This document shows positions 1 to 1,846 of a stretch of DNA of 1,846 nucleotides, in pieces. A program made the translations under genes and the position numbers. Every line of letters starts with the position of its first letter. Within the stretch, counting starts at the first letter, position 1. The stretch lies in the NCBI RefSeq assembly GCF_003334255.1, contig NZ_QOWU01000145.1; one strand, given 5' to 3'. The DNA comes from Escherichia coli. GTDB lineage: Bacteria > Pseudomonadota > Gammaproteobacteria > Enterobacterales > Enterobacteriaceae. Under the pieces are notes generated by a model. It was given only the letters and a program-made list of their open reading frames with translations. It searched no databases and was not told the DNA's origin.

Positions 1-22
1 AGCTGATAGAAACAGAAGCCAC
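1..22 (-). CDS. insA: insA (IS1 transposition regulator) N-terminal fragment, 7 codons from a GTG start, truncated by window edge
   Basis: Minus strand from 22 reads GTG GCT TCT GTT TCT ATC AGC T, i.e. (M/V)ASVSIS, matching the known InsA N-terminus MASVSISCPSC. Preceded by GAGG. Only 22 nt are visible. Confidence 0.6.
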
Positions 23-42
23 TGGAGCACCTCAAAAACACC

Positions 43-48
43 ATCATA
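43..48 (-). promoter_or_regulatory. -10-like hexamer TATGAT in the IS1 insA promoter region, directing transcription leftward out of the window
   Basis: TATGAT on the minus strand lies 20 nt upstream of the insA GTG, with GAGG as a Shine-Dalgarno 7 nt before the GTG. The insA promoter is known to lie in the IS1 left end; the exact hexamer assignment is my inference. Confidence 0.5.
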
Positions 49-54
49 CACTAA

Positions 55-77
55 ATCAGTAAGTTGGCAGCATCACC
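55..77 (-). repeat. IS1 terminal inverted repeat IRL (about 23 bp), terminus at position 77 facing glcA
   Basis: Minus strand 77..55 reads GGTGATGCTGCCAACTTACTGAT, the known IS1 IRL. Exact extent of the IR is from established descriptions of IS1. Confidence 0.85.
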
Positions 78-1752
78 CTGGACCCAAATGTATATGCCGA
101 TGGGAGGACTGGGGCTATCCGCTCTGGTCGCCCTGATCCCGATAATATTCTTCTTCGTTGCACTCGCGGTATTACGTCTGAAAGGACATGTCGCTGGAGC
201 AATAACCCTTATATTATCTATCCTGATTGCAATATTCGCCTTTAAAATGCCGATTGATATGGCATTTGCTGCTGCGGGCTATGGCTTTATTTATGGATTA
301 TGGCCAATAGCGTGGATTATTGTCGCGGCGGTGTTCCTGTATAAATTAACCGTTGCCAGCGGGCAGTTCGATATTATCCGCAGCTCGGTTATCTCCATCA
401 CCGACGATCAGCGTTTGCAGGTGTTACTGATTGGTTTCTCCTTTGGTGCGTTGCTGGAAGGAGCGGCTGGCTTTGGTGCGCCGGTGGCGATTACCGGTGC
501 GCTGCTGGTGGGCCTGGGCTTCAAACCGTTATACGCGGCGGGGCTGTGTCTGATTGCCAATACTGCGCCGGTGGCGTTTGGTGCGTTGGGCGTGCCGATT
601 CTGGTCGCCGGTCAGGTAACGGGAATCGATCCGTTCCACATTGGCGCAATGGCGGGACGTCAGTTACCGTTCCTGTCGGTTCTTGTGCCGTTCTGGCTGG
701 TAGCAATGATGGACGGCTGGAAAGGGGTGAAAGAGACGTGGCCAGCGGCGCTGGTTGCTGGGGGAAGCTTCGCTGTCACTCAGTTCTTTACCTCTAACTA
801 TATTGGTCCGGAACTGCCGGATATTACTTCGGCGCTGGTGAGTATCGTCTCACTCGCTTTATTCCTTAAAGTCTGGCGGCCGAAAAATACCGAAACGGCA
901 ATCAGCATGGGACAATCCGCAGGTGCGATGGTGGTAAATAAGCCATCTTCTGGCGGTCCCGTGCCTTCAGAATATAGTCTGGGGCAAATCATTCGAGCGT
1001 GGTCACCGTTTTTAATCTTAACGGTGCTGGTCACCATCTGGACCATGAAGCCGTTTAAAGCGTTATTTGCTCCGGGCGGCGCGTTTTATTCACTGGTGAT
1101 TAATTTCCAGATCCCTCATTTGCATCAACAAGTGTTGAAAGCGGCACCCATTGTCGCCCAACCAACGCCAATGGATGCGGTGTTTAAATTCGACCCCCTC
1201 TCGGCTGGCGGCACCGCTATTTTTATTGCGGCGATTATCTCTATCTTCATCCTCGGTGTGGGGATCAAGAAAGGTATTGGCGTCTTTGCCGAAACGCTAA
1301 TTAGCTTGAAGTGGCCGATACTGTCGATTGGCATGGTGCTGGCGTTCGCCTTCGTCACCAACTATTCTGGCATGTCCACCACGCTGGCGCTGGTACTGGC
1401 AGGTACAGGCGTGATGTTCCCGTTCTTCTCACCGTTTCTCGGCTGGCTGGGCGTATTCCTTACCGGCTCGGACACCTCCTCTAACGCCCTGTTTGGTTCA
1501 CTGCAATCGACCACGGCGCAGCAAATCAACGTCTCTGACACCCTGCTGGTGGCAGCAAACACCAGCGGCGGCGTAACTGGCAAGATGATCTCCCCGCAAT
1601 CTATCGCCGTGGCCTGCGCCGCGACGGGCATGGTGGGCCGAGAATCTGAACTGTTCCGCTACACCGTGAAGCACAGTCTGATTTTTGCCAGCGTTATCGG
1701 CATTATCACCCTGCTGCAGGCGTATGTGTTTACCGGGATGTTAGTCTCGTAA
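64..1752 (+). CDS. glcA: Glycolate / L-lactate / D-lactate permease GlcA (LctP family, TC 2.A.14); 5' end abuts IS1 terminus and native start codon is absent
   Basis: Single long ORF ending at TAA 1750..1752. From [40 protein letters not shown] onward the translation matches my recollection of E. coli GlcA (about 560 aa, native N-terminus MVTWTQMYMP; homolog LldP starts MNLWQQNYDP). It is highly hydrophobic with a central hydrophilic loop, as expected for LctP permeases. The 64 coordinate is the ORF-track TTG, which lies inside IS1 sequence. The first in-frame ATGs are at 88, 94 and 100 (native Met7, Met9, Met11), so the true initiation site is uncertain. Confidence 0.93.
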
Positions 1753-1769
1753 ATCAATAAAGCCGGATG

Positions 1770-1792
1770 GGTGATGCTGCCAACTTACTGAT
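1770..1792 (+). repeat. IS1 terminal inverted repeat IRL (about 23 bp), terminus at 1770 facing glcA
   Basis: GGTGATGCTGCCAACTTACTGAT at 1770..1792. Confidence 0.85.
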
Positions 1793-1798
1793 TTAGTG

Positions 1799-1804
1799 TA
1801 TGAT
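1799..1804 (+). promoter_or_regulatory. -10-like hexamer TATGAT in the IS1 insA promoter region, directing transcription rightward out of the window
   Basis: TATGAT at 1799..1804, GAGG Shine-Dalgarno at 1814..1817, insA GTG at 1825. The spacing fits a promoter, leader and start arrangement. Hexamer assignment is inference. Confidence 0.5.
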
Positions 1805-1824
1805 GGTGTTTTTGAGGTGCTCCA

Positions 1825-1846
1825 GTGGCTTCTGTTTCTATCAGCT
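1825..1846 (+). CDS. insA: insA (IS1 transposition regulator) N-terminal fragment, 7 codons from a GTG start, truncated by window edge
   Basis: GTG GCT TCT GTT TCT ATC AGC T at 1825..1846 encodes (M/V)ASVSIS, matching the InsA N-terminus, and is preceded by GAGG. Confidence 0.6.

Follow-up and report, generated by a model that had tools for sequence, protein, structure and literature searches.

The outward-facing −35-like hexamer in the IS1 end that adjoins glcA is half a promoter, and the glcA flank does not provide the other half. In the DNA analysed, a stretch of 1846 nt from Escherichia coli that is referred to here as the window, the tip of an IS1 element lies directly next to codon 3 of glcA, and a second IS1 tip replaces part of the terminator at the other end of the gene. 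We assign a probability of roughly 80% to the reading that this is an ordinary IS1-glcA junction with a generic half promoter that lacks a partner, and that glcA was recently truncated and is transcriptionally isolated. A working promoter at this site is unlikely on the basis of its nucleotide sequence. An earlier note on the same DNA had proposed a weak hybrid promoter and had itself graded the idea as weak and speculative, which was the right level of caution. The features on which the argument is built are the following.

1..77, minus strand: tip of the IS1 left end (IRL), with the transposase genes leftward, away from glcA
43..70, minus strand: weak promoter of IS1 itself (PIS1/PIRL), CTGCCA-16-TATGAT, directed leftward into insA (consensus scan, 7.7 bits)
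64..69, plus strand: TTGGCA, outward −35-like hexamer (IS1 half promoter), 8 bp from the IS1 tip
78..86, no strand assigned: CTGGACCCA, first 9 bp of native sequence past the IS1 tip, presumed 9-bp target site
78..1752, plus strand: glcA (glycolate permease, LctP family) with the coding sequence shortened by its initial 8 nt (ATGGTTAC), stop codon at 1750..1752
86..93, plus strand: zone in which a −10 would be required for a spacing of 16-18 bp, with AAATGT (86..91), AATGTA (87..92) and ATGTAT (88..93)
1756..1783, minus strand: mirror outward half promoter of the right IS1, TTGGCA (1783..1778)-16-TTTATT (1761..1756), antisense into the 3' end of glcA
1760..1769, plus strand: remnant of the 5' arm of the native glcA terminator hairpin (AAGCCGGATG), the 3' arm being replaced by IS1
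1770..1846, plus strand: second IS1 IRL tip, pointing rightward, away from glcA
1777..1782 and 1799..1804, plus strand: −35 and −10 of PIS1 in the right tip, with the insA GTG at 1825 (consensus scan, weight matrix)

The flank had been named IS1 and the gene glcA, and sequence identity bears out both names; the positions given for TTGGCA, for AATGTA, for TGTATATG (89..96) and for the ATG triplets at 88, 94 and 100 are also correct. The window carries a perfect 78-nt terminal inverted repeat, in which 1..77 is the exact reverse complement of 1770..1846. The left tip matches, base for base, the end of an IS1A copy annotated in E. coli MB53 (L002 2474..2550), and the published IS1 primers GGTGATGCTGCCAACTTACTG and TAAATCAGTAAGTTGGCAGCATCACC are identical to the IS1 tip of the window. 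The elements follow in the order of an IS1 IRL, namely GGTGATGCTGCCAACTTACTGAT and the sequence that continues it, then the PIS1 promoter, then the insA start; in the left tip the annotated start (GTG) of insA/insAB' is at 22 on the minus strand. The left IS1 tip ends at 77 (CATCACC, 71..77), and native glcA restarts at 78, or at 77, as base 77 fits IS1 and glcA alike. Both IRL tips face inward, so that both PIS1 promoters and both insA starts are directed away from the centre. Of IS1, which is 768 bp long when complete and is flanked by target duplications of 8-9 bp, only 77-nt tips are visible at either end of the window. The fact that both ends comprise exactly 77 nt of one repeat suggests that the window is an entire contig from a short-read assembly, cut off on either side where a repeat was collapsed (k = 77).

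The −35 of PIS1 overlaps the outward TTGGCA on the opposite strand. PIS1, an extremely weak promoter under InsA repression, lies partly within IRL, and InsA and the transposase bind the terminal repeat of IS1 of about 30 bp that contains TTGGCA (PMC12428005). Occupancy of the tip by InsA may occlude the outward hexamer.

At the native locus, as in E. coli ER1709 (L001 2494 onward), glcA starts with ATGGTTAC followed directly by CTGGACCCAAATG; the window picks up at CTGGACCCA. All native DNA 5' of glcA and the first 8 nt of the gene are replaced by IS1. If IS1 entered by simple insertion, CTGGACCCA is presumably the 9-bp target site, the second copy of which would fall outside the window. The remaining native sequence, 78..1769, has no mismatch to that of ER1709 and is 100% identical to that of K-12 MG1655, C600, J53, ATCC 8739 and many wild strains. 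The source is accordingly an E. coli with a K-12-type allele and probably belongs to phylogroup A. No decay of the glcA reading frame was observed.

Three ATG codons lie in the glcA frame near the junction: Met7 at 88, Met9 at 94 and Met11 at 100. No further one occurs before 247. In the other direction the frame is open into IS1 as far as TTG 64 and is closed by a TAA stop at 52..54. A product that starts at Met11 matches the NCBIfam model of GlcA (NF007249) with 1248.7 bits, above the curated cut-off of 1121, over profile positions 11-560; the gene thus belongs to the GlcA family (NF007249; LctP TIGR00795), and it lacks its native start codon and upstream region. The LctP family model begins at native residue 6, so that a start at Met11 drops conserved N-terminal positions. 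Gene callers take Met7 (ATG 88) as the start of GlcA in about 9,942 blocks of native contigs, and the resulting 554-residue product is on record, whereas no record was found of a 562-residue IS1-glcA fusion product. The calculated Shine-Dalgarno pairing amounts to −2.9 kcal/mol at the native start, −3.0 kcal/mol at ATG 88, 94 and 100, and +0.7 kcal/mol at TTG 64. As the three internal ATG codons pair just as well as the native start, loss of the Shine-Dalgarno sequence was set aside as an argument against expression.

The downstream end of the gene is altered as well. The native terminator hairpin, AAGCCGGATGAT-cgttaat-ATCATCCGGCTT, folds at −20.6 kcal/mol (z −6.7), and its counterpart in the window at −7.1 kcal/mol (z +0.8). 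A promoter scan of the native spacer between glcB and glcA found none, so that the native promoter lost from the window cannot be named beyond the operon promoter.

The hexamer TTGGCA matches the consensus TTGACA in five of six positions and recurs as a mirrored copy at 1778..1783 on the minus strand. Matches of this quality are not enriched in the window (14, versus 16.1 +/- 4.4 in shuffled sequences). Its occurrence here follows from the make-up of IS1: TTGGCA belongs to the invariant sequence of the inverted repeat and constitutes the outward −35 of the IRL tip. That IS1 forms hybrid promoters in some contexts, as stated in the earlier note, is documented. According to a review (PMC9330008) and a study of E. 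coli ST131 (PMC8764528), the outward −35 of IS1 activates a neighbouring gene only when a correctly spaced −10 is present.

The role of TTGGCA is best supported by an experimental system with the same tip. Steinrueck and Guet (eLife 2017; PMC5526668) recovered an IS1 that lay, in reverse orientation, 101 bp upstream of tetA-yfp, a reporter without a promoter of its own, and rebuilt the junction with the outermost 50 bp at the 5' end of IS1. The primer that they named IS1R50_f consists of TAAATCAGTAAGTTGGCAGCATCACC followed by CAGATGTGCGACTATATC, and its IS1 part is identical to positions 52..77 of the window. The rebuilt junction, IS1-p0, yielded 1.59 RFU, as compared with 1.00 RFU for the promoterless p0 control and an autofluorescence of 0.97; expression fell to 0.98 RFU when the 20 bp past the insertion point were shuffled, and 0.97 RFU was measured for the IS1 5' end by itself (600 bp; PMC5526668). 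The active flank contains GACTAT at a spacing of exactly 17 bp from TTGGCA, with TGc immediately before it (TTGGCA-17-TGcGACTAT). An independent G-to-T mutation in the first base of GACTAT, which converts it to TACTAT, also increased expression (PMC5526668). Identification of GACTAT as the −10 of this hybrid makes TTGGCA its −35, and the flank-dependent reporter expression obtained with an identical 26-nt tip sustains the claim that TTGGCA in the window is an outward-facing −35.

The window agrees with IS1-p0 in all 26 nt of the tip, in the orientation of IS1 to the gene and in the distance of TTGGCA from the tip (8 bp). It differs in the flank, which in IS1-p0 provides TGcGACTAT at 17 bp and here, without any TGn, either AAATGT (16 bp) or AATGTA (17 bp). 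Even the published IS1-p0 hybrid is weak (1.59 versus 1.00 RFU).

The −10 that is missing here was sought in several ways; by the geometry it would have to begin 8-10 bp past the IS1 tip, at 86..88. AAATGT, AATGTA and ATGTAT, at spacings of 16, 17 and 18 bp from TTGGCA, each match TATAAT in two of six positions, and none is preceded by TGn. When the spacing was widened to 15-19 bp, no candidate exceeded three matches of six. A consensus scan of the plus strand from 1 to 120 detected no promoter-like site. The earlier note was thus right in finding no good −10 within the spacing of 16-18 bp. Its description of TGTATATG as extended −10-like did not hold: the TG at 89-90 puts the hexamer at 92..97 (ATATGC), which is the wrong register. 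The overlapping TATATG (91..96) was likewise rejected, as its critical final base is G and it is 21 bp distant from TTGGCA.

Other signals in this region were considered and discarded. A sigma-54 reading, TGGCAG-N5-CCCTG, lacks GC at −12 by eye. A complete outward promoter within IS1, TGGAGC-18-TACACT (23..52, 6.1 bits), was rejected on the grounds that 600 bp of the IS1 end are silent in the reporter (PMC5526668). No structured RNA was found among Rfam families, and RNA from 60 to 130 folds no better than shuffled sequences (z +0.24).

The candidates were ranked with a weight matrix. It gave totals of 4.98 bits for the junction with AAATGT, 1.11 with AATGTA and 0.74 with ATGTAT, and these values are crude, since the matrix consists of Hawley-McClure consensus frequencies with non-consensus bases spread evenly and arbitrary spacer penalties. 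On the same scale bla P3 scores 7.0, PIS1 7.7 and lac 8.9 bits. The published active flank scores 7.6 bits plus TGn and the inactive shuffled flank 7.86, which means that the matrix ranks an inactive control above an active one and is unable to resolve weak promoters. The shuffled flank owes its score to TTGGCA-18-AATCAT, which it still offers. The proposal of an active promoter at this junction is not supported: the −10 partner is missing, and the best total, 5.0 bits, lies below that of a published flank that is inactive at 7.9 bits. In the window 17 positions on the plus strand and 13 on the minus strand, mostly within the coding sequence, score at least 4.98 bits.

For a broader comparison, IS1 IRL insertions were simulated base by base along both strands of E. 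coli DNA totalling about 22 kb. This produced 44,226 hypothetical sites, 27% of which score at least 4.98 bits, so that the junction takes about the 73rd percentile and is an average site for an IS1 insertion. Only about 2% of the sites reach 10 bits or more (99th percentile, 10.86). A real junction of that rank exists in E. coli MB53 (NZ_CP073939.1, L002), which has the same IS1 tip in the same orientation upstream of glcA and has also lost the upstream genes of the glc operon; there, in contrast to the window, glcA is intact, IS1 is located about 310 bp upstream of it, and the hybrid formed is TTGGCA-18-TACATT with 10.7 bits.

Other published cases lead to the same assessment. In E. coli ST131, IS1 increased transcription at afaA, where a −10 is well placed, and did not do so at osmB and ugd (PMC8764528). 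The glcA junction shares with afaA, and with the other IS1 fusion promoters named below, a host gene that borders on the outward −35 of an IS1 end, but it resembles the osmB and ugd negatives, which lack a −10, and not afaA. The presence of a suitably spaced −10, with raised expression that was selected for or demonstrated, distinguishes all the activated genes, bla, blaTEM-6, acrEF and afaA, from glcA at this junction. IS1 fusion promoters are reported to have activated bla (Prentki and colleagues, 1986), blaTEM-6 (Goussard and colleagues, 1991) and acrEF (Olliver and colleagues, 2005).

The mirror half promoter of the right IS1, which would read antisense into the 3' end of glcA, scores 6.2 bits, above the sense junction. 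It is probably inactive too, as the critical A is absent at the second position of its −10.

The preferred reading of an ordinary junction can be put as a sequence of events. IS1 would have inserted, or have been rearranged, such that its tip came to abut codon 3 of glcA; the event would be recent, to judge by the undecayed glcA frame. TTGGCA can act as the −35 half only where the −10 of the flank begins about 9-10 bp past the tip. The flank CTGGACCCAAATGTAT supplies no such −10, and without one no transcription or only a trace is to be expected. The gene is bracketed by IS1 ends whose own promoters read outward, with its start codon, upstream DNA and terminator lost. Several points speak against this reading. 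AAATGT retains the two most critical bases of a −10 (A in second and T in sixth place) and is combined with a −35 of five matches in six; judged by sequence alone, very low-level initiation is possible. An intact glcA frame identical to that of K-12 would also be expected if the gene were still used. Loss of the native ribosome-binding site is no strong argument, given the nearly equal values of −2.9 (native) and −3.0 kcal/mol. The weight matrix, finally, is too crude to resolve weak promoters.

The first of these points leads to the alternative that survives best, a weak but real hybrid promoter composed of TTGGCA and AAATGT or AATGTA. Initiation from a −10 at 86..92 would fall at about 97..100, near G99 or A100, and only ATG 100 would be contained in the mRNA. 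Translation would have to be leaderless and would yield GlcA without its first 10 residues. The earlier note had named ATG 88, 94 and 100 as leaderless or near-leaderless starts; the first two lie upstream of any such transcript, and only ATG 100 fits the geometry. A start at A100 would place AUG at the very 5' end of the mRNA. Leaderless mRNAs with a 5'-terminal AUG are translated in E. coli at low efficiency, an example being lambda cI transcribed from PRM. This alternative draws on the experimental proof that the IS1 IRL tip is half a promoter (PMC5526668), on the A and T that AAATGT retains, and on the Met11 product, which is still recognized as GlcA at 1248.7 bits against the cut-off of 1121. 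It is nevertheless improbable: the −10 has two matches in six and no TGn, the score is below that of the inactive published flank, more than a quarter of random insertion sites (27%) are as good or better, the Met11 start loses conserved N-terminal LctP positions, and binding of InsA and transposase together with the overlapping PIS1 would compete with outward use of the hexamer.

Still less probable is read-through from outside, in which a transcript would traverse the left IS1 antisense to insAB' and enter glcA, with translation from TTG 64 (MAASPWTQ...) or ATG 88. In its favour, an open frame runs from TTG 64 with the conserved W-T-Q retained, Met7 is already the GlcA start chosen by gene callers (the approximately 9,942 blocks mentioned above), and read-through into IS1 from flanking genes has been documented, in the sense direction (PMC12428005). 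A reporter placed after 600 bp of the IS1 5' end gave no signal (PMC5526668), and TTG 64 has no Shine-Dalgarno pairing (+0.7 kcal/mol). Read-through is also difficult to reconcile with the classical behaviour of the element. IS1 is known to be polar in both orientations.

The arrangement of the two IS1 ends raises a question of structure rather than of expression. IS insertions around glcA are recurrent. IS1 is found inside glcA in E. coli 23CRST047 and 23CRST049 and IS903B in GD33, in alleles otherwise 100% identical to that of the window, and RefSeq calls the IS1-split glcA pieces of 23CRST047 pseudogenes. These insertions lie about 165 nt or more inside glcA, whereas in the window 8 nt are lost and a second IS1 is located in the terminator. 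Neither the left nor the right junction of the window occurs in 5,426 complete E. coli genomes. Complete-genome matches that cover at least 80% of the query have their IS1 copies at other positions and are joined pieces, except for two single gapped matches at 86% identity. The left junction is also missing from species-representative genomes and from metagenome contigs; the right junction, for which the search covered only the species-representative genomes in addition to the complete E. coli genomes, is missing there too. PLSDB contains three E. coli matches, none of which has either IS1 junction; two of them are chromosome-sized records (4.8-4.9 Mb) filed as plasmids.

Against this background it is hardly likely that the structure represents a composite transposon of the Tn1681 type, with inverted IS1 copies, or the result of a duplicative inversion by IS1, in which case the junction would matter for mobility or rearrangement and not for transcription. 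This explanation concerns structure and is compatible with the other readings. IS1 composite transposons are known with direct copies (Tn9) and with inverted copies (Tn1681). A pair of inward-facing IRL ends is expected after intramolecular replicative transposition and also fits a composite element whose outer ends are IRR, and both flanks of the window are indeed IRL tips facing inward. The likeness to Tn9 and Tn1681 consists in a single passenger gene bracketed by two IS1 ends; the difference is that IS1-glcA-IS1 gives no sign of movement in the genomes, PLSDB and metagenome contigs searched. The module was not found at more than one location, it is on no PLSDB plasmid, and its junctions are absent from the 5,426 complete genomes. 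Two independent insertions explain the structure equally well. If two simple insertions took place, ATGGTTAC-CTGGACCCA should be encountered at the IRR of the left IS1 and AGCCGGATG-ATCGTTAAT at the IRR of the right IS1. The boldest combination, a mobile inverted-IS1 composite that carries a glycolate/lactate permease expressed constitutively at a low level through the half promoter and a leaderless Met11 start, is barely credible; if true, IS1 would have both captured and rewired a metabolic transporter.

Under the preferred reading, that of an ordinary IS1-glcA junction, nothing new is added to the biology of IS1: the half promoter, its dependence on context and the disruption of glcA by IS elements are all known. 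The outward half promoter and its strict dependence on a −10 in the flank have been known since the 1980s and were measured again in 2017 and 2022. The junction exemplifies the common negative case and has little significance of its own. For the annotation of such sites, a −35 with five of six matches in an IS end does not warrant a promoter call unless the flank has a −10 that begins 9-10 bp past the end of IS1. Gene-calling programs will probably present this glcA as an intact gene that starts at Met7, despite the loss of its native start and regulation.

The perfect 78-nt inverted repeat formed by the two ends of the window (1..78 and 1769..1846) consists of the left-end (IRL) tip of IS1, 77 nt per side, plus one base that matches by coincidence. 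The window looks like an entire short-read contig with a collapsed repeat (k = 77) at its borders, such that only 77 nt of each IS1 copy are visible. The right-hand IS1 interrupts the hairpin of the intrinsic glcA terminator, the 3' arm of which is gone (window 1760..1769 versus 4184..4214 in L001, the native glcA locus of E. coli ER1709). Folding of the native hairpin yielded -20.6 kcal/mol (z -6.7) and folding of its counterpart in the window -7.1 kcal/mol (z +0.8).

Insertion sequences near glcA were repeatedly observed among natural E. coli, including loci L007 (1493..3952) and L008 (1590..1600). The gene is interrupted internally by IS1 in 23CRST047, where it is annotated as a pseudogene, and in 23CRST049, and by IS903B in GD33. 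In approximately 31 complete genomes, IS1 variants lie about 20-500 bp 3' of the glcA stop codon, and in Res13-Lact-EB12-05 one IS1 variant is situated directly 3' of the terminator hairpin. All of these positions differ from those in the window.

The RefSeq GlcA protein starts at Met1 (560 residues). In approximately 9,942 native-contig blocks gene callers took the ATG of Met7, which corresponds to position 88 of the window, as the start (554 residues; L003-L006, 5001..6665); automatic annotation would therefore probably present an intact-looking glcA in the window although the gene is truncated. The open frame of glcA reaches back to TTG 64 within the IS1 tip; a TAA stop codon precedes it at 52..54 (window 52..90). 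Translation from TTG 64 could possibly yield a fusion protein with the N-terminus MAASPWTQM..., in which W-T-Q of the native MVTWTQM would be retained. Shine-Dalgarno pairing is absent at TTG 64 (+0.7 kcal/mol).

The earlier note had proposed a weak hybrid promoter at the left junction, where TTGGCA of the IS1 tip (64..69) faces glcA. A second half promoter is found at the opposite end:

1756..1783, minus strand: outward TTGGCA of the right-hand IS1, directed at the glcA 3' end in antisense orientation; TTTATT follows after a spacer of 16 bp

In a crude sigma-70 weight matrix, TTGGCA-16-TTTATT scored 6.2 bits, above the sense junction. Judged by its sequence, the antisense element is probably inactive, like the sense junction, because it lacks the A at position 2 of the -10 hexamer. 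In E. coli MB53 (NZ_CP073939.1; L002, 2535..2570), the same IS1 tip occurs in the same orientation as in the window, but glcA is intact and lies about 310 bp downstream of the tip; the position of glcB is occupied by unrelated genes. There the junction reads TTGGCA-18-TACATT and scored 10.7 bits in the same matrix, in which at least 10 bits were reached by about 2% of hypothetical insertion sites. By this measure, the MB53 junction is a far better candidate for a genuine IS1-glcA hybrid promoter.
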